Below the pieces are notes generated by a model. It did no database searches. It was not told the DNA's origin and was given only the letters and a program-made list of their open reading frames with translations. 64,000 nucleotides of DNA from Dehalococcoidia bacterium (GTDB taxonomy: Bacteria; Chloroflexota; Dehalococcoidia; E44-bin15). The translations under genes were made by a program, and so were the position numbers. Location: assembly GCA_030610655.1 (NCBI GenBank), contig JAUWRG010000001.1, forward strand, positions 175 to 64,174, written 5' to 3'. Below, piece after piece: positions 6,123 to 46,649 of this stretch; within the stretch, counting starts at the first letter, position 1; every line of letters begins with the position of its first letter.

Positions 6123-6266
6123 AAGCCCCTGTTTCCACCATCCTCAAAGGTTATGTTTAAAAGCTTGTCGTAATCCAGCCACGGCAGGCGATACAATGAG
6201 ACCAGCAACATCTGCCATCGCGGCATAGTCGACCAAAAAACTACGGCGATTCACCACCGACCTGAA

Positions 6267-7055
6267 TCACCTACCCTTAAAATCGGCCTTGCGCTTCTCA
6301 ATAAAAGCTATCATCCCTTCCCTTTGATCCTCGCTCTGTACCACAGTATCTCTGAGGGTCTCGATCTCAGCCTTGTCCTCAGCACTCATTTCCTGATACT
6401 TGAGGAGCTTGTTGAAGATGGCCTTAGTGGCACTCACCGCAAGCGGCCCGCTCTCAGCGATCTCCTGAGCCAGAGCATAGGTTGTGGCGGGCAATTCCCC
6501 CTCTGGAACCACATGGTTCACCAAGCCGATCTCCTTCGCCCTTTGGGCATCGATAAATCTGCCGGTGAAGAATAGCTCCTTTGCCCAGGCCACCCCTACC
6601 ACATTCATCACACCCTGGATACCCCCCGGGTGATAGATACTGCCAATCTTGACTGGGTTTATCCCCATCCTTGCCGTATCAGCAGCGACACGAATGTCAC
6701 AGGCAGCCGCGAGGTCGCAGCCAGCCCCCAGGGCATTTCCATAGATCATGGCAATAACCGGTTTGGTACAGGCTATAATACTCCCTCTGGCGTAGCCAAG
6801 GGGATCGCCTTTTTCCATCTTCTCACCTTCGCTAATCTGTATTCCCCCCCTCAGATCCAGCCCGGCACAGAAGGCTTTCTCCCCCGCACCCCTGAGCACC
6901 ACCACCCTCACGTCGCTATCATCCTTCAGGGCATTTAGCGCATCACCGATATTATACATTACATCTACGGTGAGGGCATTTCGCTTCTCCGGGCGATTGA
7001 TGGTGACAGTGCAGATGTAATCCTTCTTCTCTACGAGAACCACCTCTTCAGACAT
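6267..7055 (-). CDS. enoyl-CoA hydratase/isomerase (crotonase family), tandem paralog
   Basis: Aligns end-to-end with ORF 5334-6122 at about 75% aa identity by eye; both are 262 aa. Confidence 0.85.
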   Translation of the reverse strand: MSEEVVLVEKKDYICTVTINRPEKRNALTVDVMYNIGDALNALKDDSDVRVVVLRGAGEKAFCAGLDLRGGIQISEGEKMEKGDPLGYARGSIIACTKPVIAMIYGNALGAGCDLAAACDIRVAADTARMGINPVKIGSIYHPGGIQGVMNVVGVAWAKELFFTGRFIDAQRAKEIGLVNHVVPEGELPATTYALAQEIAESGPLAVSATKAIFNKLLKYQEMSAEDKAEIETLRDTVVQSEDQREGMIAFIEKRKADFKGR

Positions 7056-16864: not shown

Positions 16865-17065
16865 AAAGGGAGGCCCCCTCTGGACTCCCCTGTTTTGTTC
16901 CGTTCACCCCGAGCTTGTCGAAGGGCTCATCACGAACAGTTACTGAATCACTGCCTTTTATTGTTGGTCCGTTCGCCCCGAAAACTATGGCGTAGGTAGG
17001 GGCGTTCAGTTGAACGCCCCTACTGGGACAGGTAACTTTGTTGGAGACAAGCCTGGCAATGACGA
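16865..17065. repeat. composite intergenic repeat copy R1 (hairpin module + 27-bp palindrome module + flank)
   Basis: GGAGTCCAGAGGGGGCCTCCCT (reverse orientation) at 16869-16888; palindrome TAGGGGCGTTCAGTTGAACGCCCCTAC at 16997-17023; the flank CTGGGACAGGTAACTTTGTTGGAGACAAGCCTGGCAA matches the inverted flank at 22530-22565. Confidence 0.75.
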
Positions 17066-20781: not shown

Positions 20782-20870
20782 GGAGAGGTGTCCGAGTGGT
20801 CTATGGTGCCGCTCTCGAAAAGCGGTGTCTCAAGTAATTGGGACCGTGGGTTCGAATCCCACCCTCTCCG
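20782..20870 (+). tRNA. tRNA-Ser (anticodon CGA)
   Basis: Acceptor GGAGAGG/CCTCTCC, anticodon loop CTCGAAA, long variable arm, T-loop GGTTCGAATCC. Folded manually. Confidence 0.8.
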
Positions 20871-20871
20871 C

Positions 20872-20957
20872 GGAGAGGTGCTGGAGTGGCCGATCAGGCG
20901 CGCCTGGAGAGCGCGTGTCGCCTTTGGCGACCGTGGGTTCGAATCCCACCCTCTCCG
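20872..20957 (+). tRNA. tRNA-Ser (anticodon GGA)
   Basis: Same acceptor and T-arm as the upstream tRNA; anticodon stem CGCGC/GCGCG with loop CTGGAGA; long variable arm. Confidence 0.75.
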
Positions 20958-21080
20958 CTTCTTTCGCCCGTTGAGCTCATCCTTAATGACTTCCCCTACT
21001 CTAGCAATGGTTTTTGCTTTCCATTGGCTATTATGCTATAATGAATTAAACCGCAAATAATTGAGAGGGAAACCTGAAGT

Positions 21081-22529: not shown

Positions 22530-22957
22530 CTTACCAAGCTTGCCCCAACGAAGTTACCTGTTCCAGTAGGGGCGTTCAATTGAACGCCCCTACTAAAGCC
22601 GGTTGTATAAACATGGTCTCTCGCATTACAGTGGGGAATCAACCCCATCAGAAAGCCGTTTTAAGCCCAGGAGTGGGACGTGATATCATCATGATAGCCA
22701 TTTTGGCAGCCTAGTGGGGAAACTTATTCGGACTTTTGCTTTGTGCAACAGGCTCTACTATGTCATAGGTTGAAGGGGAGTCCAGAGGTGACTCCCTCTG
22801 GCAGGTGTCTTGGAGTGCCCCAGAACTACAGTTGAGGGTGAGCAGTCCAAAACAGAATACTCCCTCCCCTGGCACCTCACCACTCACTCCCTCACCCTCC
22901 CCCTGAAGGGAGAAGGAATCAGATTCTTCGCCTTCGGCTCAAAATGACATTCCTGTT
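22530..22957. repeat. composite intergenic repeat copy R2
   Basis: Palindrome AGTAGGGGCGTTCAATTGAACGCCCCTACT at 22566-22595 (inverted relative to R1 including its flank); GGAGTCCAGAGGTGACTCCCTCTGG at 22775-22801; the 3' part ends in a GATTCTTCGCCTTCGGCTCAAAATGACATTCC terminal-inverted-repeat-element-like tail. Confidence 0.75.
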
Positions 22958-24343: not shown

Positions 24344-26449
24344 ATGGCAAGAAAACTGGTTATCGTGGAATCGCCTGCCAAGGCAAGAACGGTGAGCCGG
24401 ATGCTGGGAAAGAGCTATAGCGTCAAGGCCTCCATCGGCCATGTACGAGATCTGACGAAGTGGAGGTTAGGGGTGGATGTCAAAGAAGGCTTCAACCCCA
24501 GGTACGAGGTTCTCAAGGAGAAGAGAGCGGTGGTGCGGGAGATAACAGAGGCGGCAAAGAATGCTTCCTCGGTATACCTCGCTACCGACCCCGACCGTGA
24601 GGGCGAGGCGATCTCATGGCATCTGGTTCAGGCAGCCAAGTTGAATAGCGCAAAGCGTGTGGTTTTCCATGAGGTCACCAATGAGGCAGTGGCGGAGGCA
24701 TTCCGCCATCCCAGAGACATCGACATGGATCTGGTCTATTCTCAACAAGCGCGCCGTATCCTCGATAGACTGGTAGGTTATAAGCTCAGCCCCTTCCTGT
24801 GGCGCAAGGTAAGGCGTGGCCTCTCCGCAGGGAGAGTACAATCGGTAGCGTTGAGAATGATCGTTGACCGGGAGCGAGAGATAGAGAGCTTTATTCCACA
24901 GGAGTACTGGTCCATCGATGCCAAGCTGGAAAAGGCCGCTACGAAAGAAAGCTTTATAGCTTCTCTCGTCGGTCTCACCAGTGGCAAGAAAATCAAGATT
25001 GGCAGCGAACAAGATGCAAAAAAGCTTTGCGCCGAGCTTGAGAACGCAAGCTATGCCGTATCCCAGGTACAAAAGAAGGAGGCATTTCGTCAACCAGCGC
25101 CACCCTTCACCACCAGCACCCTACAGCAGGAGGGTTGGCGCAAGCTCCGCTTCACCGCCAAGCATACCATGGCCATCGCCCAGCAACTCTATGAAGGCTT
25201 ATCTATCGGCGAGGAAGGGTCAGTGGGGCTCATCACCTATATGCGCACCGATTCAGTGAGAGTGGCCCCATCAGCCTTGAATGAAACTCGCGCCTTTATC
25301 AAGGAAAAATACGGGGACAAATTCCTCCCCCCCAAACCTCGCATCTTCACCAAGAAGGCGAAAGGCGCTCAGGAGGCCCATGAGGCCATCCGTCCCACAT
25401 CGGTAAGGCGAGAGCCATCCTCAGTGAAGCACCATCTCAACAGGGACCAATTCAGGCTCTACGAGCTCATCTGGAAACGAATGGTTGCAAGCCAGATGTC
25501 GCCGACCATACTCGACACCATATCGGTAGACATAGAGGCAATAGATGGAAATTCCTATCTACTCAGGGCTAAGAGCTCGGTGGTAAAGTTCCCCGGCTTC
25601 GCAATCCTTTATAGCGAGGGCAAGGATGAGGCCGAGGATGAAAAGGCGGTGCCCCCCCTGCCTGAGTTGGTAAAGGGCGAATCCCTGAATCTTCTAGGGC
25701 TTTTCCCCGAGCAGCATTTCACCCAGCCTCCACCTCGCTACAGTGAGGCGACCCTGGTTAAGGCGCTGGAGGAAAGGGGGATCGGTCGCCCCAGCACCTA
25801 CGCCCCAACCCTTTCTACAATTCAGGACAGAAGCTACGTTGAGCGTATTGACGGTCGGTTTCACCCCCTTGAGATTGGCTTTGTGGTGACCGACATCCTT
25901 ATCGAACATTTCCCTGACATTGTTGACCTTGGCTTCACCGCTCAGATGGAGGAGGAATTAGACCAAATCGCCCAAGGTGAGAGGGGATGGGTTCCTTTTC
26001 TTCAAGATTTCTACGGCCCCTTTGAAAAGACCCTGAAGACCGCAGATGAGCGATTGGAGAGAGTCAAGGTGGAAGAGGAGACCACGGATGAAGTCTGTTC
26101 AATTTGCGGCAGACCTATGGTCATCAAGTGGGGGCGCTACGGCAAGTTTCTCTCCTGTTCAGGCTACCCAGAATGCAAGAATGCCAAGCCCTTTTTGGTC
26201 AAGACCGGCGTCAAGTGTCCCAAGTGCGGTGGTGAAGTGGTGCAGAAGCAAAGCAAGAAAAAGCGCTTCTTCTATGGCTGCGCCAACTACCCGGATTGTG
26301 ACTTCATTACCAGCAACAAGCCTATTCCTCAGCCCTGTCCTCAGTGCGGAGGGCTGCTTGTGATACAGGGCAAAAAGAGAGCGAAATGCCTCAAATGCGA
26401 AGCCAGCGTCAGCCTGGATGAGATAGAGAGGGAGGCAGTCAAGGTATGA
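24344..26449 (+). CDS. topA: DNA topoisomerase I
   Basis: N-terminal TOPRIM (LVIVESPAKARTV), catalytic Tyr region, C-terminal Cys4 zinc ribbons (CPKCGG, CPQCGG). Confidence 0.95.
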   Translation: MARKLVIVESPAKARTVSRMLGKSYSVKASIGHVRDLTKWRLGVDVKEGFNPRYEVLKEKRAVVREITEAAKNASSVYLATDPDREGEAISWHLVQAAKLNSAKRVVFHEVTNEAVAEAFRHPRDIDMDLVYSQQARRILDRLVGYKLSPFLWRKVRRGLSAGRVQSVALRMIVDREREIESFIPQEYWSIDAKLEKAATKESFIASLVGLTSGKKIKIGSEQDAKKLCAELENASYAVSQVQKKEAFRQPAPPFTTSTLQQEGWRKLRFTAKHTMAIAQQLYEGLSIGEEGSVGLITYMRTDSVRVAPSALNETRAFIKEKYGDKFLPPKPRIFTKKAKGAQEAHEAIRPTSVRREPSSVKHHLNRDQFRLYELIWKRMVASQMSPTILDTISVDIEAIDGNSYLLRAKSSVVKFPGFAILYSEGKDEAEDEKAVPPLPELVKGESLNLLGLFPEQHFTQPPPRYSEATLVKALEERGIGRPSTYAPTLSTIQDRSYVERIDGRFHPLEIGFVVTDILIEHFPDIVDLGFTAQMEEELDQIAQGERGWVPFLQDFYGPFEKTLKTADERLERVKVEEETTDEVCSICGRPMVIKWGRYGKFLSCSGYPECKNAKPFLVKTGVKCPKCGGEVVQKQSKKKRFFYGCANYPDCDFITSNKPIPQPCPQCGGLLVIQGKKRAKCLKCEASVSLDEIEREAVKV

Positions 26450-27390
26450 TCCCTCTTCTGTATAACACGGAAATCACGGATAGATTGCTTCAAAGTTACA
26501 TCCGCTATCTGGAGGTGGAGCGCAATGCCTCCCCCTATACTGTGCGCAACTACATCCATGACCTTCGCCACTTCATGGAGTTCCTCGGCACAGAGAAGGT
26601 GACAACGCTGGATGAGGTGGATCGCCACCTGCTGCGCCGCTATATCGCCTTCCTCTTGGAGAACGGATTCGAAAAGACAAGCGTAGCACGTAAAGTGAGC
26701 GCCTTGCGCTCTTTCTATCGATATTTAATAAGGGGGAACATCGTCTCCTCAAACCCACTCGCTACCATCTCCTCACCAAAGCTGGAACAGAGGCTCCCCT
26801 CGTTCCTCTCCGGCGAAGAGGTTATTCACCTGGTGGAAGCACCTGATATCTCGACCCCACTGGGGCAGCGGGATAGGGCGATACTAGAGCTTTTCTATGC
26901 CTCCGGGCTCAGGGTAAACGAGGTTGTTAGACTCGACGTAAGCAATGTCAATTTTGAAGAACGGGAGGTTCGCGTATGGGGCAAGGGCTCCAAGGAGCGC
27001 ATAGTGCTCATAGGCAAGCCTGCAGCATCAGCCCTCGTTGTCTATCTTCGTGAAGGTCGTATACGGCTTCTTGGCAAGTCAAGGACTGAAGCCCTTTTCC
27101 TCAATCGATACGGGAAGAGGCTCTCCGAGCGCGCCCTCCAAAAGTCGCTGGCAAGGTATGCCATCAAGGCAGGTCTTGATAAACGGGTTCACCCCCATTT
27201 GTTACGCCATAGTTTTGCCACTCATCTTCTCGACGGCGGTGCCGACCTTCGGGTGGTTCAGGAGCTTCTCGGTCACGCCAACCTCTCATCTACCCAGATC
27301 TACACCCACGTTACCCAGAGCCAGGCGCGTAAGGTGTATCTGGCTGCCCACCCCAGAGCGGAGAAAGACGAAGGAGATAAAGACCGATGA
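26446..27390 (+). CDS. xerC: tyrosine site-specific recombinase XerC/XerD family
   Basis: R..HxxR..Y catalytic motifs (LRHSFATHLL, LGHANLSSTQIYTHV); sits in the conserved dprA-topA-xer synteny. Confidence 0.85.
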   Translation: MIPLLYNTEITDRLLQSYIRYLEVERNASPYTVRNYIHDLRHFMEFLGTEKVTTLDEVDRHLLRRYIAFLLENGFEKTSVARKVSALRSFYRYLIRGNIVSSNPLATISSPKLEQRLPSFLSGEEVIHLVEAPDISTPLGQRDRAILELFYASGLRVNEVVRLDVSNVNFEEREVRVWGKGSKERIVLIGKPAASALVVYLREGRIRLLGKSRTEALFLNRYGKRLSERALQKSLARYAIKAGLDKRVHPHLLRHSFATHLLDGGADLRVVQELLGHANLSSTQIYTHVTQSQARKVYLAAHPRAEKDEGDKDR

Positions 27391-27815
27391 AAATCCTGCT
27401 GATCCACGGACCGAACCTGAACATGCTGGCCAAGAGAGATACGGCGCTGTACGGTGACAAGACCCTCACCGAGATCGATTCCCTAGTGAAAAAAAGGGCC
27501 CAGGAGCTGGGTGTCGAGGTCTTAGCCTTCCAGTCGAACAGCGAGGGGACACTAATAGACTTCATCCAAGCCGAATGCCCCAAAGCAGATGGAATCATCA
27601 TCAACCCCGGGGCACTGACCCATTATGGTTACTCGCTTCGGGAGGCCCTGGTTGATAGCGCCCTCCCGGTGATCGAGGTCCATCTATCAAACATCTACGC
27701 CCGTGAGGAGTGGCGTCACAAATCAGTAATCGCGCCCATCGCCAGGGGCCAGATCAGCGGGCTTGGCTGGCGGGGCTGTGTTGCCGCCTTGGAGATATTG
27801 GCCGCAGAAATATAA
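27387..27815 (+). CDS. aroQ: type II 3-dehydroquinate dehydratase
   Basis: MKILLIHGPNLNMLAKRDTALYG N-terminus and HLSNIYAREEWRHKS signature. Confidence 0.9.
   Translation: MKILLIHGPNLNMLAKRDTALYGDKTLTEIDSLVKKRAQELGVEVLAFQSNSEGTLIDFIQAECPKADGIIINPGALTHYGYSLREALVDSALPVIEVHLSNIYAREEWRHKSVIAPIARGQISGLGWRGCVAALEILAAEI
27753..27812. repeat. aroQ 3'-end segment duplicated downstream of the toxin-antitoxin cassette (left copy)
   Basis: ATCAGCGGGCTTGGCTGGCGGGGCTGTGTTGCCGCCTTGGAGATATTGGC versus ATAGCGGGCTTGGCTGGCGGGGATATGTTGCCGCCTTGGAGATAGTGGC at 28745-28800. Confidence 0.75.
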
Positions 27816-28132: not shown

Positions 28133-28384
28133 ATGCCTAAGAAAGTGATACAGGTTCCTATCGAGCAAGAGTTGCTACACGCTCTTGATTTATTATCAAA
28201 GAAGCGCCGTCAATCTCGATCAGAACTTATTCGAGAAGCCTGCCAACGATATCTAAGACAAATAGAATCTGAGCAGCTAGATGAGGTCTATAAAGAGGGA
28301 TATAGAAGGCTACCCGAGGAGTCATCTCTGGGGCAGGGGCAGGTGAGTCTAGCGACTCAGATTCTTCCTCAGGAGTCTTGGTAA
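28133..28384 (+). CDS. ribbon-helix-helix family antitoxin (MazE/CopG-like)
   Basis: 83 aa; RHH-type N-terminus (KKVIQVPIEQELLHALDLLSKKRRQSRSELIREA); stop/start TAAATG junction with the downstream toxin gene. Confidence 0.65.
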   Translation: MPKKVIQVPIEQELLHALDLLSKKRRQSRSELIREACQRYLRQIESEQLDEVYKEGYRRLPEESSLGQGQVSLATQILPQESW

Positions 28385-28699
28385 ATGCATCGTGGTGAGG
28401 CATGGTGGGCAAATTTGCCTCCTCCTATTGATAGACGACCGGTGCTTTTGCTTTCCAGAGAAAGTGCTTACCAAGTGAGAACCTCCATTACTGTAGCTGT
28501 TATTACTCGCACCATTAGAGACATCCCCGTAGAGGTACCACTAGGGCTAGAGGATGGTATGCCTAATCAGTGTGTGGTGAATCTTGATGATATCTTAACT
28601 ATACCAAAAGCTTTGCTTAGTGAGCGAATCACCGTTTTATCTGACGCCAAGATGGCTCAAGTTATTAAGGCGATTGCCTTTGCTTTAGACCTAGGTTAG
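28385..28699 (+). CDS. MazF/PemK-family mRNA interferase toxin
   Basis: 104 aa; the RGEAWWANLPPPIDRRPVLLLSRES pattern is typical of the PemK/MazF fold. Confidence 0.65.
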   Translation: MHRGEAWWANLPPPIDRRPVLLLSRESAYQVRTSITVAVITRTIRDIPVEVPLGLEDGMPNQCVVNLDDILTIPKALLSERITVLSDAKMAQVIKAIAFALDLG

Positions 28700-28744: not shown

Positions 28745-28800
28745 ATAGCGGGCTTGGCTGGCGGGGATATGTTGCCGCCTTGGAGATAGTGGCAACAGAG
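28745..28800. repeat. degenerate duplicate of the aroQ 3' end (right copy), downstream of the MazEF-like cassette
   Basis: See 27753-27812. Confidence 0.75.
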
Positions 28801-28981: not shown

Positions 28982-30040
28982 ATGAACGACCGCCTGGAAA
29001 AGCTGCGTCGCAAGATTGCCAGTGACGGACTGGATGCCATCCTCATCTCCCAGGGGGAGAACCGCCGCTATCTCAGCGGCTTCACCGGCTCGGCAGGCTT
29101 TCTCCTCATATCAGAGAAGAGCGCCATCTTGGCAACCGACTTTCGCTACACCGAGCAGGCGAAAAACCAGGCGTCCGATTTTGACATCGCCCGGATTGAG
29201 GGGGAGATGCAAAAGTGGTTCCCCAAACTCATTTCCTCGCTCGATGCGAAAAGAATAGGATTTGAAGCAAACGACCTTTCCTTTTCAACCTACCAGCAGC
29301 TCATGACGGCGGCGGGTGAGAAGGAACTCGTGCCCACTGAGGGATTTGTAGAGTCGTTGCGCGCCATAAAGGACGATAAGGAACTGGAGCTTATTACCAC
29401 GGCAGTGGAAATCTCCGATGCCGCATTCAACGAGGTCGCCTCGACTATCTGCCCAGGCATGACCGAAAAGCAGGTAGCATGGGAGCTGGAGAAAGCAATG
29501 CGCCAAAATGGCAGCGAACCCATGCCCTTCGAGATTATCGTAGCCTCGGGGCCAAATGCCGCCCTCGCCCACCACAAACCCACCGAGCGCACCATTCTTC
29601 AAGGTGAGCCGGTTATCATCGATATGGGGGCACGCATTGAGGGCTACTCCAGCGATCTGTCCAGAACCATTTGCCTTGGCAACCAGGACGAGGTTTTTGG
29701 TAAAATATATCATCTAGTTCTTCGCGCCCAGCTTGCCGCTATCGCCGCTGTCGAGGCGGGGATGAGTGGAGAGGAGGCAGATGGGCTCGCCAGGACGGTC
29801 ATCGAACAGGGAGGCTATGGGGATAATTTTGGACATGGACTGGGACACGGAGTTGGCCTTGCTCCCCATGAACAGCCTCGTCTGGGGAAAGGCTCTAAGG
29901 ATATTCTCACCGAAGGCATGGTATTCACCATCGAGCCGGGTATTTATATCAGCGGCTGGGGCGGGGTGAGGATCGAGGATACGGCGGTTCTGGAGAATGG
30001 CAAAACGAGGGTGCTCTCCAAAGCGAAGAAGACAGGTTGA
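28982..30040 (+). CDS. pepP: M24 family Xaa-Pro aminopeptidase
   Basis: Creatinase-like N-domain plus M24 pita-bread metal ligands (HGLGHGVG, IEPG). Confidence 0.85.
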   Translation: MNDRLEKLRRKIASDGLDAILISQGENRRYLSGFTGSAGFLLISEKSAILATDFRYTEQAKNQASDFDIARIEGEMQKWFPKLISSLDAKRIGFEANDLSFSTYQQLMTAAGEKELVPTEGFVESLRAIKDDKELELITTAVEISDAAFNEVASTICPGMTEKQVAWELEKAMRQNGSEPMPFEIIVASGPNAALAHHKPTERTILQGEPVIIDMGARIEGYSSDLSRTICLGNQDEVFGKIYHLVLRAQLAAIAAVEAGMSGEEADGLARTVIEQGGYGDNFGHGLGHGVGLAPHEQPRLGKGSKDILTEGMVFTIEPGIYISGWGGVRIEDTAVLENGKTRVLSKAKKTG

Positions 30041-30116
30041 CTTACCAAAGAGGCTTGCGACAGCCATAAAGCTTCACAATAAGAATCCAGGCCTAGTTCG
30101 AAAAGAGGGCGAAGAA

Positions 30117-30677
30117 ATGATCAGCACTGGTGAGCTAAAGAAGGGGATAACCATCGAGCTGGACGGTGAGCTTTACCAAATAATCGACTGGCAACATATC
30201 AAGGTAGGGCGAGGCAGCGCTCAGGTCAGGCTCAAGCTCCGCGATATTCGAGCAGGGCACACCATCGAGCGCACCTTCCAGGCAGGCGAGAAGTTTCCTC
30301 GAGCCAGATTGGACCGCAACACGGTGCAATTCCTTTACAACGATGGCGACCTATACTACTTCATGGACTCGGAAAGCTTCGAACAGTCCACGCTCAGTGG
30401 TAAGCAGGTCGGCGATGCCATCAACTACCTCAAGGAAGGTATGTCTCTAGACATACTTACCTACAAGGATGAACCGATAAACCTGGAGCTTCCCAACTCT
30501 GTGGAGCTTGAGGTTGTGGAAACCGACCCTGGCTTCAGAGGTAATACAGCAACTGCGGCGAACAAGCCAGCCAAGCTGGAAACAGGAATCACCATTCAGG
30601 TCCCTCTCTTCGTAGACAAGGGAGACATCGTCCGTGTTGATACTCGCACTGGCGCATACCTTGAAAGGGCAGGCTAG
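30117..30677 (+). CDS. efp: translation elongation factor P
   Basis: 186-aa EF-P with the KPGKGxA-loop equivalent (IKVGRGSAQVRLKLRD). An ATG at 30117 is preceded by a GAGGG RBS; the ORF track's 29997 start is an unlikely N-terminal extension. Confidence 0.9.
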   Translation: MISTGELKKGITIELDGELYQIIDWQHIKVGRGSAQVRLKLRDIRAGHTIERTFQAGEKFPRARLDRNTVQFLYNDGDLYYFMDSESFEQSTLSGKQVGDAINYLKEGMSLDILTYKDEPINLELPNSVELEVVETDPGFRGNTATAANKPAKLETGITIQVPLFVDKGDIVRVDTRTGAYLERAG

Positions 30678-30697
30678 ATGCAGGTATATTCTGTTAT
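30675..30697. repeat. left copy of a 22-bp direct repeat flanking the inserted island (efp stop + ancestral xseA start)
   Basis: TAGATGCAGGTATATTCTGTTA versus the right copy TAGATGCAGCTATATTCTGTTA at 36646-36667; one mismatch. Confidence 0.8.
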
Positions 30698-30736
30698 GAC
30701 GAAATGGCGGCCTCAAAAATTGGAGGCTAATTTACA

Positions 30737-33361
30737 ATGGCCTTGCATAGCATACTAAAATCAAAAGTTGCTGAATGGGAAAAATCTAATTATACCTCAG
30801 ATTATCCCGTTATTTCTGAGATTTTCAATTACAATCAAAATCCTGAAACTCAGAACTTGCCCTACTTACGAAAAGCCCAGTTTGAAGCCCTTGAAACTTA
30901 CTGGTATTTAAGACTTGTGGAGAAAACCCCTCACATTTTTGAACTCCATAATAGATTGTATCCTAATCCTTTAGATTTTCTGAAAGTCCTCGGAATACCC
31001 ACCGAGAATCAGGAAATTTTAGGACTGGCTTTAACAGGTGGCACAGACAGGATAATTGACCAGATAAGGACAAATGATGAGTTTGTAAAGAGGCATGGAC
31101 TTGAGACTGTAAGGGAAACTTTGACCCTTGAATATCCCAGTTATATCCTAGCTTTGGCAATGGGAGCAGGTAAGACCATCTTGATCGGCACAATTATCGC
31201 TACTGAATTTGCAATGGCTCTTGAATATCCAGAGAATAACTTCGTCAAAAATGCCCTAGTATTTGCGCCGGGTAAGACAATATTAGGAGCATTAAAGGAG
31301 TTATCGGATGTTCCCTATGAAAAAATATTGCCTGAAAGGCTTTATAAGCAGTTCATAACTACCACAAAATTTACCTATACCCGCGATGGCGAAAAAGACA
31401 TCCCGATAATCAAAGGCTCAAGTTTTAATATCGTAGTAACCAATACCGAAAAGATTAGAATACAAAAACACTCAATAACCAAATCCCTAATTAGAGATTT
31501 ATTTGTTGACCCATCCCGGGAAGATGAGGTAAAGGAGGCGATAGCCAATCAGAGATTGCAAACAATTGCCTCGCTTCCAAATCTTGCTATCTTTTCTGAT
31601 GAAGCACACCATACCTATGGACTGGCACTCGGTGAAGAACTGAAGAGAGTGAGACAAACAGTTAATTATCTGTCAGAAAAGACAAATGTTTTAGTTGTGA
31701 TAAACACCACGGGAACCCCATATTATAAAAGGCAGATCCTTAAAGATGTTATTTATTGGTATGGGCTATCACAAGGAATAAAAGATGGAATATTGAAAGA
31801 AGTCCGGGGCAATATTGTATCTTATCCAGAAGTAACCGACAAAGATTTCCTAAAAGATATTATCGCCGATTTCTTCAAGAATTATAAAGATGTAAAAATC
31901 TATGACGGCAGTCCTTCTAAACTGGCAATATATTTCCCCAAAATAGAGGATTTAAAGAATGCCAAACCAGTTGTTGAGAAAAACTTAATAGAACTCGGTT
32001 TAGACCCTTCTGTTATTTTAGAAGTCCATAATGAGTCAAAACAAGAGGTTAAGGATTTATTTGATAACCGAATAAATGACCCTCACCTACCTTATCGCAT
32101 ATTTCTTCTTGTTAATAAAGGGACTGAGGGATGGAACTGCTTATCCCTCTTTTCTACTGCCTTAGCACGCAAACTGACAGCAAGTAATAACTTTTGCCTT
32201 CAAGCCACCTCCCGCTGCCTCAGGCAAACTCCCGGCAATATACACAAGGCAAAAATATACCTTTCCAAAGATAATGTCGGAATTTTAGACGCCCAACTTA
32301 AAGAGACCTATGGTGAAACTCTTGAAGATTTAAATAGAACTTCACAAGATATGAGAGAGGATAGACTAATTTTGAGGAAAGTAGAAATACCACCTGTTTT
32401 ACTCAAAAAGAAGATTCGAAAAGTTCTGCCTAAAGAAGTGCTGTCAGATATTAGTCAAATGGAGTTTAAGAAGATTGAAGGAGAAAAAGAGAAGTTTAGA
32501 AAGACTATCCATAGCCTTGATGACATTCCTCAGAGGAAGGGAGTCTTAATTTTTGTAAGAGAAGAGGAGATAGAAATTATTGAAGATTTCGTGGATAGTT
32601 ATACCTTTGCTGTGGAACTATCAAGCCTTTATCGCCTACCCCTTATGTTAATATACGACAAATTGAAGGAGTTGTATCCCGAAGGCGAGATTCCTGAAAG
32701 CGATGCCATTGAACTTAAAAGGCAAATAGAAGAGCAAGTGCGAAACTACGAAATAAAAGAGGAAGAGGTAGAATTTGCCCTTGCTCTCATAAGACCCGAG
32801 GGCTTCAATAAGGAGGAAAAAGACGGCAAGAGTATATATGTAACCGAGATAGTCTATCATAAAGACAAGGAGAAATACCTATTAAAGTGGGATGAGTTTA
32901 AAGATAAATTTAAGAGAGACTTCGGCTTCCACTATAATCCCTATAAATTCGATTCTTCTCCTGAGAAGGAATTTTTTACCTGGCTTCTTGAAAACTTGAA
33001 CGAAGACCCGGCAGATGTTGAAGACATCTATTATACCGGTGGTATGGATGACCCCAATAAGACAGACTTTCTCTTTGAATATAAGGCTAAAGATGGCAGG
33101 TATCATAACTATGCACCTGATTTCCTGATAAGAAGAAAAAGTGGGAAAATAATAATTGTGGAGGTAAAAGCAGAGCGCTTCAAAGATGAAGAGAAGGAAA
33201 AGGAGATGAGAAGGATTGAAGGGCTAAACCCTGATAGATTAAAGTATGAAATTGTAGAGACCAAAGGTGAACAGCTAGCTTTTGAGGGTTTAAATAAAGT
33301 TAGAGAAGCAATCTATGAGTATGGCAGTAAAGGGGTAAATAAGAATGCTTACTCAGTCTGA
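30737..33361 (+). CDS. Type III restriction Res-like SF2 helicase with a C-terminal PD-(D/E)xK nuclease motif
   Basis: Motif I AMGAGKT, motif II FSDEAHH, motif III NTTGTP, motif VI QATSRCLRQ, and C-terminal PDFLIRRK...IIIVEVKAE. AT-rich codon usage unlike the flanking genes. Confidence 0.7.
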   Translation: MALHSILKSKVAEWEKSNYTSDYPVISEIFNYNQNPETQNLPYLRKAQFEALETYWYLRLVEKTPHIFELHNRLYPNPLDFLKVLGIPTENQEILGLALTGGTDRIIDQIRTNDEFVKRHGLETVRETLTLEYPSYILALAMGAGKTILIGTIIATEFAMALEYPENNFVKNALVFAPGKTILGALKELSDVPYEKILPERLYKQFITTTKFTYTRDGEKDIPIIKGSSFNIVVTNTEKIRIQKHSITKSLIRDLFVDPSREDEVKEAIANQRLQTIASLPNLAIFSDEAHHTYGLALGEELKRVRQTVNYLSEKTNVLVVINTTGTPYYKRQILKDVIYWYGLSQGIKDGILKEVRGNIVSYPEVTDKDFLKDIIADFFKNYKDVKIYDGSPSKLAIYFPKIEDLKNAKPVVEKNLIELGLDPSVILEVHNESKQEVKDLFDNRINDPHLPYRIFLLVNKGTEGWNCLSLFSTALARKLTASNNFCLQATSRCLRQTPGNIHKAKIYLSKDNVGILDAQLKETYGETLEDLNRTSQDMREDRLILRKVEIPPVLLKKKIRKVLPKEVLSDISQMEFKKIEGEKEKFRKTIHSLDDIPQRKGVLIFVREEEIEIIEDFVDSYTFAVELSSLYRLPLMLIYDKLKELYPEGEIPESDAIELKRQIEEQVRNYEIKEEEVEFALALIRPEGFNKEEKDGKSIYVTEIVYHKDKEKYLLKWDEFKDKFKRDFGFHYNPYKFDSSPEKEFFTWLLENLNEDPADVEDIYYTGGMDDPNKTDFLFEYKAKDGRYHNYAPDFLIRRKSGKIIIVEVKAERFKDEEKEKEMRRIEGLNPDRLKYEIVETKGEQLAFEGLNKVREAIYEYGSKGVNKNAYSV

Positions 33362-33818
33362 GGCAGATGCTTTAATCGATATGCGAAAGAAACTCGCCAA
33401 AAAAGAAGTGTATAATTTCCCTCCGGCTGGCGAAATATTAACTATTCCTATTATCTCTGTGGACGAAAGGGAATCTTTCTTGATAGATATAAACAGAGGA
33501 AGCATCAGGCTTACCAAATGCACTTATCAGGAACGCTACCAGAGGATAATTACCCTCGTGCGTCTTGATATCGATGGACCTCCACATCCTAATCCAGAGG
33601 TGGTGAATATTCCATTTCCTCACCTTGAACCCTATAACGGACAGACGATACCTTGTCCCCATTTACACCTCTATGTGGAAGGATTTATGGATAAATGGGC
33701 AATTCCATCTCCGTCTGAGAAATTTCCAAGAACAACCGACCTCGTTGCAATTCTAGCCGATTTCTTCCGCTACTGTAACGTTGTTGAACTACCGGCAATA
33801 CAAAGGGGGATGTCTTGA
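33345..33818 (+). CDS. hypothetical protein (157 aa), translationally coupled inside the res-mod-like operon
   Basis: Overlaps the upstream stop by 17 bp and the downstream start by 4 bp. I recognise no motif. Confidence 0.5.
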   Translation: MLTQSEADALIDMRKKLAKKEVYNFPPAGEILTIPIISVDERESFLIDINRGSIRLTKCTYQERYQRIITLVRLDIDGPPHPNPEVVNIPFPHLEPYNGQTIPCPHLHLYVEGFMDKWAIPSPSEKFPRTTDLVAILADFFRYCNVVELPAIQRGMS

Positions 33819-34582
33819 TTTTAAAAGACTGTCAAGATTTGGTTAATGCTTATATTGAATGGCTTCAACAGAGAATTAACGTAGAAGATATAAAAGGAGT
33901 TTGTGAGATTACCACCCCCTTTGTTGATAGACACAATGACCAGCTACAGATATATGTCAAGCCTTCTAATAATAGGCTCATTCTTACAGATGATGGCTAT
34001 ACCATTAAAGACTTAAAAATAAGTGGATTTGAAATTACAACTGAAAAAAGACGACAAATACTCTATTCTATATTAAATGGTTTTGCTGTCCAACTTCATG
34101 GAGATGAGCTTACTGTGGAAGCAACGCCGGATAACTTTGCCCAAAAAAAGCATAATCTTATTCAGACTATGCTTGCGGTAAATGACCTTTGGACTATGAC
34201 TGAACCAATGGTAGCAAGCCTTTTTAGAGAAGATGTAGAAAGATACTTGCGCGAGCATAAAATCCGATTTACTCCCTCAATCAAGTTTGCTGGAAAGAGC
34301 GGTTTAGACCATTCTTTTGATTTTGTAATTCCGGCTTCGCCTGTAAAACCAGAAAGAATACTCAATGCCATTAGCAATCCGACACGGCAAAATATCTCCT
34401 TGCTAATCTTTTCTTGGACTGAGATAACAGAAGTGAGAGCACCCGATTCTACTGCCTATGGAGTTTTAAATGATACAGAGAAACAGGTAAGTCCTGATCT
34501 TATTGATGCACTCCAGCGGTATTATATTAGACCTATACAATGGAGCCGTAGAGCTGAGTATGTTGAGGAACTCGCATCATAA
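33815..34582 (+). CDS. hypothetical protein (255 aa) resembling DUF1828/DUF1829-type proteins
   Basis: The motif EITTPFVDRHNDQLQIYV...LILTDDGYTIKDL matches my recollection of the DUF1828 N-terminal signature. Not verified. Confidence 0.45.
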   Translation: MILKDCQDLVNAYIEWLQQRINVEDIKGVCEITTPFVDRHNDQLQIYVKPSNNRLILTDDGYTIKDLKISGFEITTEKRRQILYSILNGFAVQLHGDELTVEATPDNFAQKKHNLIQTMLAVNDLWTMTEPMVASLFREDVERYLREHKIRFTPSIKFAGKSGLDHSFDFVIPASPVKPERILNAISNPTRQNISLLIFSWTEITEVRAPDSTAYGVLNDTEKQVSPDLIDALQRYYIRPIQWSRRAEYVEELAS

Positions 34583-34593
34583 GGGATAAGGCT

Positions 34594-36603
34594 ATGGCTG
34601 AGAATAAAATCAAGATTACCCCCGCTAAAGGGCGACCAATGCTTCACTGGGTGGGCAAAAAGCCTTCGGATTATGTAAAAGGCTTCCCTACTCAACTTGT
34701 TGAAGTTTTTGACCCGTTGAATAATGGGCAGAGAATTGAAACGCCGACTTACGATGAACTAAAAGACAACTGGCAAAACTTACTCTTTCACGGTGATAAC
34801 AAAGATGTTTTAGCCACACTTCTTGAATTAGGATTTAGGGGAAAGATTGATTTAATTTATATTGACCCGCCATTTAAAAGCGGCGCTGATTATGTAAGAA
34901 AGATTGAACTGCGGGGATTAAAGAATTTAGGGCGAATAGAAGAAGATGAGGCGTCACTACTTCAGCAGACAATGTATTTTGATATTTGGAACAATGACAG
35001 CTATTTGCAGTTTATGTATCATAGATTGATACTTTTGAAGGAGTTATTAAGTGATGCAGGAAGCATTTGTCTGCATTGCGATTATAGACAAAATAGTTAT
35101 TTGAGATTGATAATGGATGAAATTTTTGGTGCGGATAATTTCAGAAATGAAATTATTGTGCGAAGAGGGGTCAAAAGCCTTCAAGCCCAGTTTGATATGA
35201 TCGATTCCTTATCCTCTGGTAATGACACTATCTTGGCGTATGTAAAAGATCCCAATACAAAGTTTAAAAAGTTAGAAATTGAACTTACAGAATCGCGGCA
35301 AGGGACTTGGAATAACCATTGGAGAGGCACTGATCGCCCTACGATGCGATATGAATTATTTGGGATAACACCAACACACGGCCAATGGCGATGGAGTAAA
35401 GAACGCTCAATGAACGCTATTGAGAATCATAAGGCATTTCTCAAGGTGGCAGACAAGTATTCAAGCATTGACGAGTATTATTTGGAGAAGAAAGCAGCCG
35501 GAATTGAACTAGATTTCTTGCGTCTTAACAATAAAGGGAAACCAGAACATTATGTGCCGACTACAGACATTAGACTTTCAAGTACGCTATGGACTGACAT
35601 CTCTGCATATGATAGTGGCTCTTCCTTTCAGACACAAAAAAGTGAGGAATTACTTGAAAGAATCATTGATTGGTTAACCAACCCCGGCGAACTCGTCCTT
35701 GACTGTTTCATCGGCTCGGGCACAACTGCTGCTGTTGCTCAGAAACTTGGCCGGCGATGGATTGGCTGCGATATAAACAAAGGGGCAATTCAGACGACAA
35801 GCAAGAGGTTACAAAAGGTAATTCTTGAACAGATAAAATCCCCCTCTAATCCCCCTTTATTAAAGGGGGAAGTAGGGGGATTTGCTGTTTACAAGGTCAA
35901 TGACTACGATTTGCAACTTTTAAGAACCGAGGCGATTGAACTTGCCGTCCAGCATATCGGTATTCAGAAGATAAGAACCGATGCATTCTTTGACGGATAC
36001 CTGGGGAAAAACCTAGTTAAAGTTATTGACTTCAACCATCCATTAACTCTTTTGGATTTACAACTTCTTCAAGACGAACTCAAGAAAAGACCAGATGAAG
36101 ATAGGGATATTACCATCGTCTGCCTTGGCAAAGAATTAGCCGTCGACCCCGAAATTGAAAAATGGAATAAAAAACACCCAGTAAATAAGATTAAAGTAAT
36201 TGAATTAAAAACAGATAAAAAATATGGCAGTTTCTTAATCCATAAACCAGCGGAGGCAAAGATAGAGATTCTTCCCCTTCACTTCGTTCAGGGTCAGAAT
36301 GACAGATTGGCAATAATAGAGATTCAAGATTTTATCTCACCTACCATAATTGAGCGGCTTAATATTGATAATACTCTTTTCAAAGTAAAAATCCCCGACT
36401 TTAGAAGTATGATAGACACAGTTTTGATTGACACAAATTACGATGGTAAAACCTTCCATATAGTTCATTCAGATGTTCCAAAGAGGAAAGATGACTTAGT
36501 CAAAGGAAAATATGAAATCGAGCTTCCAAAATCAAAAACAAAAGTCGCAGTAAAAATAATTGATATGCTTGGAGAAGAGATTATAAATGTTTTCGAGGTA
36601 TAA
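34594..36603 (+). CDS. beta-class N6-adenine/N4-cytosine DNA methyltransferase, Type III Mod-like
   Basis: Motif IV IDLIYIDPPFKSG precedes motif I VLDCFIGSGTTAAVA (beta circular order); N-terminal LLFHGDNKDVLATL; 669 aa. Confidence 0.8.
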   Translation: MAENKIKITPAKGRPMLHWVGKKPSDYVKGFPTQLVEVFDPLNNGQRIETPTYDELKDNWQNLLFHGDNKDVLATLLELGFRGKIDLIYIDPPFKSGADYVRKIELRGLKNLGRIEEDEASLLQQTMYFDIWNNDSYLQFMYHRLILLKELLSDAGSICLHCDYRQNSYLRLIMDEIFGADNFRNEIIVRRGVKSLQAQFDMIDSLSSGNDTILAYVKDPNTKFKKLEIELTESRQGTWNNHWRGTDRPTMRYELFGITPTHGQWRWSKERSMNAIENHKAFLKVADKYSSIDEYYLEKKAAGIELDFLRLNNKGKPEHYVPTTDIRLSSTLWTDISAYDSGSSFQTQKSEELLERIIDWLTNPGELVLDCFIGSGTTAAVAQKLGRRWIGCDINKGAIQTTSKRLQKVILEQIKSPSNPPLLKGEVGGFAVYKVNDYDLQLLRTEAIELAVQHIGIQKIRTDAFFDGYLGKNLVKVIDFNHPLTLLDLQLLQDELKKRPDEDRDITIVCLGKELAVDPEIEKWNKKHPVNKIKVIELKTDKKYGSFLIHKPAEAKIEILPLHFVQGQNDRLAIIEIQDFISPTIIERLNIDNTLFKVKIPDFRSMIDTVLIDTNYDGKTFHIVHSDVPKRKDDLVKGKYEIELPKSKTKVAVKIIDMLGEEIINVFEV

Positions 36604-36645
36604 TAAAGATGAAACCGCCACTTCATGTGGCACGGTGTAAAAGTA

Positions 36646-36667
36646 TAGATGCAGCTATATTCTGTTA
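36646..36667. repeat. right copy of the 22-bp direct repeat; contains the functional xseA start codon
   Basis: See 30675-30697. Confidence 0.8.
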
Positions 36668-37812
36668 GCCATGTAATACGCTATCTCAGGGAGGTTCTCG
36701 AGGCTGACAGCCTTCTCACCGACATTTGGGTCAGCGGCGAGGTCTCCAACCTGAGGGAGTCGGCGGCGGGGCATCTATATTTCACCCTCAAGGATGAGAC
36801 AAGCCAGTTACGCTGTGTATTCTTCAGGCCAAAACTAGCCATCACCCTGGAAAACGGGGCAGCGGTGATAACACATGGCCACATCTCTATCTATGAAGTC
36901 TCCGGCGCCCTCCAGCTTTATGTTGACCTAGTGCAGCTTGAAGGGGTGGGCATACTCCACCTTGAGTTTGAGCGCCTCAAGGCAAAACTGGAGGAGGAGG
37001 GACTATTCGAACCTGTCCGCAAAAGATCGTTGCCCCTGTTCCCCAAGCGAATCGGCGTGGTTACTTCGCCCACAGGCGCTGTATTTTATGACATCGCCAG
37101 TATAATTGGCAGACGCTACCCTCTGGTCGAGCTGGTTCTCTCTCCAACGCTTGTGCAGGGCGACGGTGCCGTAGATGGCATCGTTCAAGCTTTGCAGGCT
37201 CTCAATGATATGGAGGACATCGATGTGGTGATTCTGGCTCGCGGTGGTGGCTCACTTGAAGACCTGTGGGCCTTCAATGATGAAAAGGTTGCCCGCGCCA
37301 TTTATGCCAGTAAAGCGCCAGTGATCAGCGGGGTGGGGCACGATACCGACTTCACCATCGCCGATTTCGTTGCCGACGTGCGTGCCCCCACACCATCAGC
37401 GGCGGCCGAGCTCGCTGTGCCCGACTATGCAGAACTGGAAGCGCACATTCAATCGCTTACAAAGACGCTATTGATAGACGTCACAAGGTACCTTGACCGC
37501 TATCGCCAGCGCACCGACGAACTCACCAGAGCAGCGTCAGTGTATCTCGGTAATGCCCTCGCCATAAGCAGGGAGAAACTGCGGGGTCGAGAGCTTGAAC
37601 TCGCCTCGCTGAGTCCATTGGCTACCTTGAGTCGTGGCTACGCCCTGGTGCAGCATTCGGCCACCGGCGAGGTCGTTTCTCATATAGACCAGGTTCAGCG
37701 CGGCGATGCCATCGATATCAAAGTAAGCGATGGCCAGTTTAAGGGCAGGGTCACCGGATCGAAGAAGGGGCTCCAGGGATGGATGAACGGCTTTCCTTCG
37801 AAGAAGCACTAA
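36649..37812 (+). CDS. xseA: exodeoxyribonuclease VII large subunit
   Basis: OB-fold N-terminus (VSGEVSNLRESAAGHLYFTLKD) and catalytic core. Confidence 0.9.
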   Translation: MQLYSVSHVIRYLREVLEADSLLTDIWVSGEVSNLRESAAGHLYFTLKDETSQLRCVFFRPKLAITLENGAAVITHGHISIYEVSGALQLYVDLVQLEGVGILHLEFERLKAKLEEEGLFEPVRKRSLPLFPKRIGVVTSPTGAVFYDIASIIGRRYPLVELVLSPTLVQGDGAVDGIVQALQALNDMEDIDVVILARGGGSLEDLWAFNDEKVARAIYASKAPVISGVGHDTDFTIADFVADVRAPTPSAAAELAVPDYAELEAHIQSLTKTLLIDVTRYLDRYRQRTDELTRAASVYLGNALAISREKLRGRELELASLSPLATLSRGYALVQHSATGEVVSHIDQVQRGDAIDIKVSDGQFKGRVTGSKKGLQGWMNGFPSKKH

Positions 37813-37997
37813 AAAGGCTGGAGAAAATAGTGCACGCTCTACAGGGGGGTGGACTTACCTTGGAACAGGCGATTGCCCTCTTTGAAGATGGGATGGGTCT
37901 TGCCAAGACATGCAACGAGCGACTGAATGCTGCCGAGCTTAAAATAACCCAGCTTCAGGCTGACTTTGAGCCAGAGCCAGAACACAAGGACGAATAA
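37779..37997 (+). CDS. xseB: exodeoxyribonuclease VII small subunit
   Basis: 72 aa; SFEEALKRLEKIVHALQGGGLTLEQAIALFEDGMGLAKTC; overlaps the xseA 3' end. Confidence 0.85.
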   Translation: MDERLSFEEALKRLEKIVHALQGGGLTLEQAIALFEDGMGLAKTCNERLNAAELKITQLQADFEPEPEHKDE

Positions 37998-37999
37998 CT

Positions 38000-38653
38000 T
38001 TGATAAAGGCTGACCTTCACATTCACACTGGTTACTCCCCAGATTGCAGCACACCGCTGGCAAAGATAATCGAACGCTGTCTCAAAATTGGCATCAACTG
38101 CGTCGCCATAACCGACCATAATACCATTGCTGGTGCCCTAGATATGAAGAGGCTGGCCCCTTTCAAAGTCATTGTTGGAGAGGAGATCGAGACGCTTACC
38201 GGAGAGGTCATCGGGTACTTTCTCAGCGAAGAGATCCCCAAAGGGCTTACCGCTGAGGAAACCGCCATCAGAATTAAGAAGCAAGGTGGTGCAGTGTGCA
38301 TCCCCCACCCTTTCGACAGATTTCGTATGTCCGCTCTTCAGCGCCAGAGCATGGAGAAACTTTTGCCTTACATTGACATCATTGAGGTGTTCAATTCGCG
38401 CCTTCTTCTGCTTCGCCACGCCGCCAAGGCCGAGCACTTCGCTCAGGCTCACCGGCTTCTTTCGAGCGCCGGCAGCGATGCCCACACCTCCTCTGAAGTG
38501 GGCAACGCCTACGTGGAGATGCCAGATTTCAACGATAAAGACCACTTCCTCGCCGCTCTAACACAGGGCAAAATAGTCGGCAGGAGATCCGGCCTTCTGG
38601 TGCGCCTGCATAGCAACTGGGCCAAACTGCGGAAGGTTCCAAAAGGCCAGTAA
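38000..38653 (+). CDS. PHP-domain phosphoesterase
   Basis: HIHTGYSPDC ... AITDHNT histidine motifs. Confidence 0.7.
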   Translation: MIKADLHIHTGYSPDCSTPLAKIIERCLKIGINCVAITDHNTIAGALDMKRLAPFKVIVGEEIETLTGEVIGYFLSEEIPKGLTAEETAIRIKKQGGAVCIPHPFDRFRMSALQRQSMEKLLPYIDIIEVFNSRLLLLRHAAKAEHFAQAHRLLSSAGSDAHTSSEVGNAYVEMPDFNDKDHFLAALTQGKIVGRRSGLLVRLHSNWAKLRKVPKGQ

Positions 38654-46046: not shown

Positions 46047-46649
46047 CTAAGCCTCTGGCCTCGTCAGGATCTCGTCCACCAGCCCGTATTCCACCGCTTG
46101 CTCTGCACTAAGATAAAAGTCGCGGTCGGTATCCCTGGCAATCTTGTCATATTCCTGACCAGTGTGCTTCACAATAATGCCACGCAGCATCTCCTGCATC
46201 CTTATGATCTCCTTAGCGGCGATGGCTATGTCTGCCGCCTGCCCCTGAGCACCACCCATAGGCTGGTGCAAGTGAATGGTTGAATGGGGCAGAGCGTAGC
46301 GCTTGCCTTTGGCACCAGCGCACAGAAGAACCGTCCCCATGCTGGCAGCTATTCCAACGCAGATGGTGGAGACATCGCATTTGACGAGCTGCATGGTATC
46401 GTAGATGGCAAGACCGGCGCTGATGATTCCACCAGGGCAGTGAACGTACATGCTGATATCATTCTCAGGGTCCTCCCGCTCCAGATATAGAAGCTCAGCG
46501 ATGATAAGGTTGGCTATTTGGTCATTGATCGGATTGCCCAAGAAGACTATCCGCTCCCTTACAAGCAGAGAGAATATATCAAGGGTTCTTTCCCCACGAG
46601 CACTCGTCTCTGTTACAAAAGGTATCACGCCCTTCGGCAAACTATCCAT
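46047..46649 (-). CDS. clpP: ATP-dependent Clp protease proteolytic subunit
   Basis: ClpP Ser-His-Asp region (GIAASMG, HQPMGG). Confidence 0.9.
   Translation of the reverse strand: MDSLPKGVIPFVTETSARGERTLDIFSLLVRERIVFLGNPINDQIANLIIAELLYLEREDPENDISMYVHCPGGIISAGLAIYDTMQLVKCDVSTICVGIAASMGTVLLCAGAKGKRYALPHSTIHLHQPMGGAQGQAADIAIAAKEIIRMQEMLRGIIVKHTGQEYDKIARDTDRDFYLSAEQAVEYGLVDEILTRPEA

Follow-up and report, generated by a model that had tools for sequence, protein, structure and literature searches.

How does a block of AT-rich DNA come to stand between two housekeeping genes and leave both of them readable? The question is raised by a 64,000-nucleotide stretch of the genome of a Dehalococcoidia bacterium (assembly GCA_030610655.1, contig JAUWRG010000001.1, positions 175 to 64,174; hereafter the window, numbered from its first letter), in which an island of four genes separates efp from xseA. 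The island is a cassette made of res and mod, which together are predicted to form a Type III-like restriction–modification (R-M) pair, with a candidate defence gene pair, PDC-M24, lodged between them. Our preferred account, held with moderate confidence, is that the cassette was acquired horizontally as a recombinase-less insertion that left a long duplication of its target, of the type described by Kobayashi and colleagues, and that homologous recombination in efp and xseA followed.

The duplicated efp/xseA junction

The island is bracketed by a 22-bp direct repeat, TAGATGCAGGTATATTCTGTTA at 30675-30696 and TAGATGCAGCTATATTCTGTTA at 36646-36667, whose copies differ by one mismatch (G/C); the segment between them, 30697-36645, measures 5,949 bp. 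Scanning the 64-kb window for the 22-mer with up to three mismatches returned exactly two matches, against 0.00 expected from 100 shuffles. An earlier interpretation made from the letters alone (the sequence-only reading) had described such a one-mismatch repeat around an AT-rich block, and this was borne out; the left copy ends at 30696, one base short of the position it had been given.

The left host gene, efp (elongation factor P; + strand, 30117-30677; TIGR00038, 7e-73; Pfam EFP_N/EFP/Elong-fact-P_C), ends within the repeat, its stop codon TAG (30675-30677) supplying the first 3 nt of the left copy. The remainder of that copy (30675-30696 as a whole, + strand) is a dead duplicate of xseA's opening 19 nt (ATGCAGGTATATTCTGTTA, which codes for MQVYSV). 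The right copy (36646-36667, + strand) holds the functional start of xseA (exonuclease VII large subunit; + strand, 36649-37812; TIGR00237, 1.8e-129). These gene coordinates agree with the proposal that the efp TAG abuts the xseA ATG inside the repeat and that only the right copy opens a real xseA. As also foreseen, the old xseA start in the left copy opens a 26-codon remnant open reading frame (ORF; 30678-30758, + strand), which crosses the ribosome-binding site and start codon of res. The two novel joints made by the insertion are CTGTTATGACGAAATGG and GTAAAAGTATAGATGCAG, and TAGATGCAGSTATATTCTGTTAGCCATGTAATA in single copy would mark a donor-type empty site. Two further features of the junction may be due to chance: a promoter-like TTGAAA-18-TATATT spans the end of efp and the left repeat (30661-30690), and a 7-codon mini-ORF, MWHGVKV (36625-36648), stops at the right-repeat TAG, recreating a stop-start overlap for xseA.

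Windowed GC and codon usage, checked as the sequence-only reading had suggested, set the island apart from its host. Its GC content is 38.5% in a genome of 51-53% GC; the adjoining 5-kb flanks have 52.1% and 53.4%, and the island forms the lowest GC trough of the window. GC at third codon positions is 0.29-0.39 in the four island genes compared with 0.59 ± 0.06 in 34 host ORFs (z −3.6 to −5.4), and an index resembling the codon adaptation index is likewise low (z −1.7 to −3.0). All four genes lie on the + strand, and neighbours overlap by 17 nt or 4 nt or stand 11 nt apart. The expected lack of integrase, transposase and tRNA held up: domain-profile searches detected no integrase or transposase domain among the island proteins, and no tRNA or Rfam RNA was found in or beside the island, which leaves no tRNA or other non-coding RNA as an integration target there.

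The restriction–modification cassette and its embedded pair

The first island gene encodes a Res-like subunit of 874 amino acids (+ strand, 30737-33361; Pfam ResIII, 2.2e-6; a weak TnsA-like N-terminal hit). Its match to PADLOC REase_III is only 6e-5 and partial, and it scores 63.5 bits in NCBIfam against an 800-bit cutoff. Res carries the superfamily 2 (SF2) helicase motifs GxGKT (residues 143-147) and DEAHH (288-292), followed by a C-terminal PD...ExK motif (P794 D795 ... E809 x K811), and the columns of all three motifs are invariant in the Res alignment. Homologues are numerous, with 2,956 at E <= 1e-20; among the 120 listed, most are 67-71% identical, and they come from several phyla. Those on plasmids are labelled by NCBI as 'TnsA endonuclease N-terminal domain' proteins. 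No relatives of Res were found in IMG/VR viruses.

The last gene encodes a Mod subunit of 669 amino acids (+ strand, 34594-36603), a beta-class N6-adenine DNA methyltransferase that matches Pfam N6_N4_Mtase (4e-41), PADLOC MTase_III (2.7e-59) and the Mod subunit of EcoP15I (4zcf; 2.9e-19). Its motifs DPPF and then FIGSGTT stand in beta-class order. A central stretch of about 540 nt (about 35155-35691) lacks homology between cassettes and is likely to encode the target-recognition domain. Judged by these sequence features, Res and Mod would form a Type III-like R-M pair, 'like' since Res lacks detectable similarity to solved Res proteins; Mod would mark host DNA and Res would cut unmarked invading DNA. 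The pair resembles the Type III systems EcoP15I and EcoP1I in its beta-class Mod with a variable central domain, for which EcoP15I Mod is the best solved relative, and in its Res with an SF2 helicase and a C-terminal PD-ExK motif. It differs from them in gene order, which is mod-res in Type III systems and res...mod here, with two extra genes between the subunits.

The two embedded genes are adjacent, overlap by 4 nt and match both PADLOC models of PDC-M24. PDC-M24A (157 amino acids; + strand, 33345-33818) is a DUF6978 protein (Pfam, 8.9e-42; PDLC04538, 7e-56), and PDC-M24B (255 amino acids; + strand, 33815-34582; PDLC04539, 3.3e-100) combines DUF1828 with DUF1829. PDC-M24 is a PADLOC candidate system, predicted by guilt-by-embedding in BREX, DISARM or Type I R-M (bioRxiv 10.1101/2024.01.29.577857), and DUF1829 has separately been implicated in HipAD/DS-6B (PMC13092281). 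Sequence searches found no homologue of known structure for M24A or M24B. In a structural model of M24B with a predicted local distance difference test (pLDDT) score of 91, the N-terminal DUF1828 adopts a type III secretion system chaperone/YbjN-like fold and the C-terminal DUF1829 a restriction-endonuclease (PD-(D/E)xK) fold. The model points to M24B as a putative nuclease effector, in which a chaperone-like sensor domain may be joined to a PD-(D/E)xK nuclease and partnered with the DUF6978 protein. No fold could be assigned to DUF6978 from the model of a natural fusion, which is mediocre (pLDDT 70, with 45-80 in the DUF6978 part).

Single-chain DUF6978-DUF1828-DUF1829 fusions of 363-403 amino acids occur naturally (P0286, P0310, P0322 and P0350), and at one locus (L102, 962-2158) an M24A-M24B fusion stands alone, outside any R-M system. 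Because of these fusions, and of the lone one in particular, we consider that M24A and M24B work together and can act without the R-M pair. In the cassette they would constitute a second, independent nuclease-based line of defence, as a candidate system. Both M24A and M24B have matches in PHROG as well, to families without an assigned function (phrog_5059, 1.6e-76; phrog_21094, 4.5e-17).

The same arrangement recurs beyond the window: in all retrieved contexts, res and mod bracket a slot of variable content. M24AB fills the slot alone in L104 and L105 and together with a protein of about 295 amino acids and unknown function in L095 and L096; elsewhere the slot holds an OLD-family ATPase/TOPRIM nuclease (L093), HEPN and MNT genes (L094) or a 237-amino-acid protein of unknown function (L098), and it is empty in a homologue on an Ideonella plasmid. 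The helicase/methylase/ATPase composition of L093 led us to consider membership of Hma; no PADLOC Hma model matched proteins of the window. The cassettes occupy diverse sites, downstream of rplY in a Dehalococcoidia metagenome-assembled genome (L094), between type III CRISPR arrays (L095, L096 and L098, the last adjoined by an ISL3 transposase), some 3.6 kb away from the gene of a tyrosine integrase (L104) and at another locus in L093. Their neighbours are often type III CRISPR-Cas, TIR, SMODS or HEPN/MNT genes, which is typical defence-island content. Three of the cassettes, on metagenomic contigs, lie between or inside arrays with 37-nt repeats (L095, 8750-9822 and 16871-19521; L096, 8229-9892 and 16947-17683; L098, 6755-7774 and 15289-15476); the L096 cassette starts about 40 nt past a degenerate terminal CRISPR repeat, and in L098 a degenerate repeat begins 11 nt after the mod stop.

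The architecture is one of embedded defence, in that slot content varies among homologous res...mod cassettes. It parallels the findings of Payne et al. 2024 (bioRxiv 10.1101/2024.01.29.577857), in which small defence modules nest in modification-based systems and differ among homologues; the hosts in that screen were Hma, BREX, DISARM and Type I R-M, whereas the host here is a Type III-like pair with res first. TgvAB inside a Type I R-M system of Vibrio cholerae (PMC11411939) is a comparable nested module.

Empty sites, recombination and the mode of insertion

Judged by its flanking genes, the window belongs to an uncultured member of the Dehalococcoidia. The state of the junction before insertion was sought in relatives. 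The sequence-only reading had predicted that efp would run straight into xseA there, and the order pepP-efp-xseA is indeed uninterrupted in 13/13 related loci in which efp abuts xseA, a sample made up of the retrievable loci (L007-L012, L019, L023, L087-L089, L091 and L092). Among them is L091, which has an empty site and 95% identity in XseA and stems from a European Nucleotide Archive (ENA) sample of similar accession. Because the junction is empty in close relatives, L091 among them, we regard the insertion as derived.

The repeat is not the allele of these nearest relatives. Their empty junctions match the 22-mer at only 13-14/22 positions, and XseA proteins of 90-95% identity start MKIHSV(A/V)E (for example, MKIHSVAEVT) or with the near variants VNIYSVAE and MNIYSVAE. 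Compared with these relatives, the start MQLYSVSHVI is confined to island carriers. In deeper clades of the Dehalococcoidia, XseA commonly begins MQVYSV or MQVYTV, and the native junction of L092 (XseA 81% identical), TAGATGCAGGTCTATTCCGTTAGCCAAGTAACA, matches the left repeat at 20/22 positions and continues like the right copy. XseA of the window differs from P0003, the closest protein from an empty site, at 19 amino acids, all in residues 2-275, and 6/19 of these differences fall within residues 2-10 (P about 1e-6). From these sequences, we conclude that the duplicated unit is a genuine efp/xseA junction allele, one that does not belong to the nearest relatives of the lineage. The island probably arose elsewhere and arrived via homologous recombination in its flanks; since the first ~36 nt of xseA are very divergent, we place its earlier origin in a more distant lineage.

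Comparison with L091 gave this exchange its approximate limits. Sliding-window identity, calculated after removal of the island, placed a recombination tract at 30422-37532, within which the two sequences are 92-97% identical, with differences at 17 of xseA's first 42 nt. On either side lie 100% identical blocks at about 29882-30421 and 37533-38072 (−796 to −256 and +884 to +1424 from the junction). In L090, a second strain that carries it, the island is 100% identical, including the G/C mismatch of the repeat, and the flanks differ in patches. Because of the identity mosaic against L091 and the patchy L090 flanks, we place the island inside a homologous-recombination tract that ends in efp and xseA. 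Its presence or absence would have been swapped through flank homology, whether by gain here or by loss in L091. Between the window and L091, blocks of 100% identity alternate with blocks of 83-97% identity, and patches clustered in a similar way occur in L090 (37434-37665 and 44152-44346); recombination between homologous sequences seems to be frequent in this Dehalococcoidia population.

The ends of the cassette bear on how it was joined. An alignment of six cassette leaders and a motif scan define the leader at 30697-30736 (+ strand), with GGAGG 8 nt before the res ATG, and homology among leaders begins at GTTAT (30693-30697), which takes in the final 4 nt of the left repeat and the base that follows. 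The left joint accordingly shows microhomology of 4-5 nt, GTTA(T). The trailer (36604-36645, + strand; trailer alignment and motif scan), which contains a small hairpin, is truncated relative to L093 and L095: homology goes no further than the T of the TAG in the right copy, and those two cassettes share at least 60 further nt (about 60-95) that are missing here. Since leader and trailer homology begin and end at the repeats, the repeats delimit the foreign DNA exactly; and a truncated end, together with microhomology at the left joint, points to illegitimate joining rather than to an att site. A conserved 17-nt motif (consensus ATGAAGTGGCGGTTTCA) occurs at 30699-30715, and 5/6 close cassettes have it some 38 nt ahead of the res ATG; its reverse complement, at 36610-36626, follows the mod stop by 7-8 nt both here and in L095. 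The pair could serve in 5'-3' pairing of the mRNA, act as an operator or be a relic inverted repeat.

These features fit a known pattern. In 2000, Nobusato et al. reportedly described R-M units inserted with a long duplication of the target. Such insertions, with duplications of variable length, were documented for Type I-IV R-M by Furuta, Abe and Kobayashi 2010 (PMC2853133). The island shares with their cases both an R and an M gene, a length below 20 kb (5,949 bp), the lack of a mobility gene and a repeat found in single copy at the empty related locus (13 loci, with L092 at 20/22 and the closest at 13-14/22). A second instance lies in the same operon, 2 kb upstream of the island, where 53-bp repeats of the aroQ 3' end (27756-27808 and 28747-28799, + strand; 91% identical) flank a 938-bp insert of lower GC that carries a ribbon-helix-helix (RHH) antitoxin gene (28133-28384) and a PemK/MazF toxin gene (28385-28699). 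The site is single-copy, and hence empty, in L007, L008, L010 and L019, and L091 appears to carry the insert. We read this toxin-antitoxin pair as the product of another, independent event of the same pattern, long target duplication included, and its 53-bp repeat exceeds the 30 bp required by Furuta et al. Because duplication length varies between the two (22 and 53 bp) and neither has a mobility gene, the pair of insertions matches the mode of long target duplication (PMC2853133).

On the account we favour, illegitimate recombination would have joined the cassette into efp-TAG|ATG-xseA at two joints 22 bp apart on the target, so that TAG and the first 19 nt of xseA became duplicated. This first event would have taken place in a Dehalococcoidia lineage with an xseA beginning MQVYSVS, and homologous recombination in efp and xseA would then have brought the island and that xseA 5' end into the present lineage, or maintained them there. 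Biochemically, staggered breaks with fill-in or template switching could have produced the duplication.

Several observations weigh against this account. The 22-bp duplication is shorter than the >30 bp of Furuta et al. (PMC2853133), whose cases also differ in that the exact pre-insertion allele is not recovered here and that the host is an uncultured member of the Dehalococcoidia; 22 bp is also a length that att cores can have, as in the Dehalococcoides islands with their 20-bp ssrA repeats (PMC3146451). Neither a donor lineage nor an empty site bearing the exact 22-mer was found, and a scan of JGI metagenomes with an efp 3'-end/junction pattern yielded only three empty sites (L087-L089), with XseA about 76% identical, and not the exact pre-insertion allele. 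The polarity of the tract could be either gain here or loss in L091. L093 has no comparable flanking duplication, its best being an 8-mer, and for this reason a long target duplication is no regular hallmark of the cassette family. Found at a single joint, the 4-5 nt of microhomology might be coincidental. Finally, Res has no detectable sequence similarity to solved Type III Res proteins, profile search included.

Site-specific integration, in which the 22-mer would be the att core of a tyrosine or serine recombinase acting in trans or since lost (host XerC/D, as in integrative mobile elements exploiting Xer (IMEX), or a DsiB-like enzyme), is an explanation we consider fairly unlikely; the sequence-only reading had named a site-specific insertion. 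With its 22 bp set at the very end of a housekeeping gene present in single copy, the repeat does resemble the ssrA repeats of the low-GC Dehalococcoides islands (McMurdie et al. 2011, PMC3146451), which belong to the same class, repeat about 20 bp of the end of a single-copy essential gene and in some cases lack an integration module. Those islands share one att, stack in tandem and typically carry a DsiB/DsiA serine recombinase module (PMC3146451), whereas the efp/xseA island has no recombinase, no recurrence at its site and no att common to the cassette copies. The 22-mer is absent from the flanks of the L093-L098 and L104 cassettes (six other copies) and from all other fetched loci and viral contigs, the search having covered these and not genomes or metagenomes with the 22-mer as a free-standing pattern. 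Related cassettes thus sit at unrelated sites, and their ends differ between copies. The tyrosine integrase gene near the L104 cassette and an Xer-type recombinase gene 3.3 kb upstream of the island (26446-27390) would offer enzymes, but the latter belongs to a dprA-topA-xer-aroQ-pepP synteny that is conserved in relatives without the island. The dyad of the repeat spans only 3 bp (CAG-N7-CTG), and the sequence to the right of the right repeat is not native to close relatives, as a local attB x attP reaction requires. An origin by Xer at a dif-like site was rejected for now on the conserved synteny and the short dyad; TATATTCTGTTA within the repeat presumably bears a loose likeness to the XerD arm of dif.

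What stands of the sequence-only reading is horizontally acquired defence cargo in a conserved housekeeping junction; its site-specific, integrative-cassette and hotspot interpretations are not supported. As a pure defence-island hotspot, the locus would have efp and xseA as anchors between which cargo is swapped solely by homologous recombination, the 22-bp repeat being incidental. In favour of this, the genes carried are defence genes, the alternation of 100% and 92-97% identical blocks shows homologous recombination acting on the flanks, and the island is identical in two strains with differing flanks. Yet all of the 13 retrievable related junctions are empty and none holds alternative cargo, the cassette family occurs in many unrelated contexts, and recombination in the flanks makes no target duplication, so another event is needed for the repeat. 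We therefore regard a hotspot of this kind as unlikely.

A non-autonomous transposon-like unit appears quite improbable. Here the 17-nt inverted motifs would be terminal inverted repeats, the transposase would act in trans or be the TnsA-like PD-ExK domain of Res itself, and the 22 bp would be a target-site duplication. The recurrence of the leader motif and its inverse after mod agree with this, as do the weak TnsA-like hits of the Res C-terminus, the TnsA names of plasmid homologues and the ISL3 transposase beside the L098 copy. But the motifs are not terminal, being set 3 nt and 21 nt inward of the repeats, and the trailers of L093 and L095 extend well past them; the trailer motif is missing in L094, L096, L098 and L104; L093 is flanked by no duplication; and a 22-bp target-site duplication is far above the usual DDE or Tn7-type length.

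A bolder conjecture, to which we give very little credence, is that res-slot-mod cassettes mobilise themselves by means of their own nuclease and the inverted leader and trailer motifs, at sites that include gene boundaries and CRISPR arrays. If true, a restriction enzyme would double as insertion machinery, which would supply a mechanism for Kobayashi's unexplained long target duplication, and the toxin-antitoxin insertion 2 kb upstream would point to an activity operating in this lineage.

The genome is metagenome-derived and several assemblies break within the island (L001 and L006 in res, L003-L005 at about 36277), but an assembly or binning artefact, that is, low-GC foreign DNA joined chimerically to a contig of Dehalococcoidia, is excluded for practical purposes because both junctions recur with identical sequence in independent assemblies from different ENA/Logan samples (the left in L006 and L090, the right in L001-L005 and L090). 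Three independent Logan assemblies (L003, L004 and L005) all start at ~36277, in mod and 372 nt upstream of xseA, L001 and L006 end at ~31490-31540, and one ENA assembly breaks within res. Strain variation in the cassette or a drop in coverage in AT-rich DNA may account for these breaks.

Operon context, other window features and significance

The cassette and the pepP-efp-xseA-xseB operon run in the same direction, and a search for terminator-like sites on the + strand found none after mod. Because of this co-orientation and lack of a terminator, read-through into xseA is probable; the cassette itself is probably transcribed by read-through, with xseA still expressed. The right repeat would restore the TAG-ATG context of the xseA start.

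Elsewhere in the window, a 29-nt perfect-stem palindrome, GTAGGGGCGTTCA(G/A)TTGAACGCCCCTACT, occurs in two copies 5.6 kb apart (16996-17024 and 22566-22594) and has the look of a repetitive extragenic palindromic element or a terminator. Two abutting tRNA-Ser genes with CGA and GGA anticodons (20782-20958) have identical 3' 30-mers. Two adjacent paralogous ORFs of 262 amino acids share an 80% identical 300-nt stretch (5332-5631 and 6265-6564), and three tandem 36-nt repeats (46662-46769) lie within the ORF at 46642-48039.

The locus presents known phenomena in well-resolved form; it does not represent a new kind of element, and current understanding is not overturned. It offers a base-pair-resolved case in which a recombinase-less defence cassette enters a compact housekeeping operon without destroying efp or xseA, the 22-bp duplication keeping stop and start intact. 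Relatives with an empty site, together with the recombination tract, document a likely two-step history of illegitimate insertion followed by homologous exchange. For the candidate PDC-M24 pair, the analysis provides a structure-based hypothesis, and the embedded-defence pattern is extended to a widespread Type III-like family in which res comes first and the middle slot is swappable.

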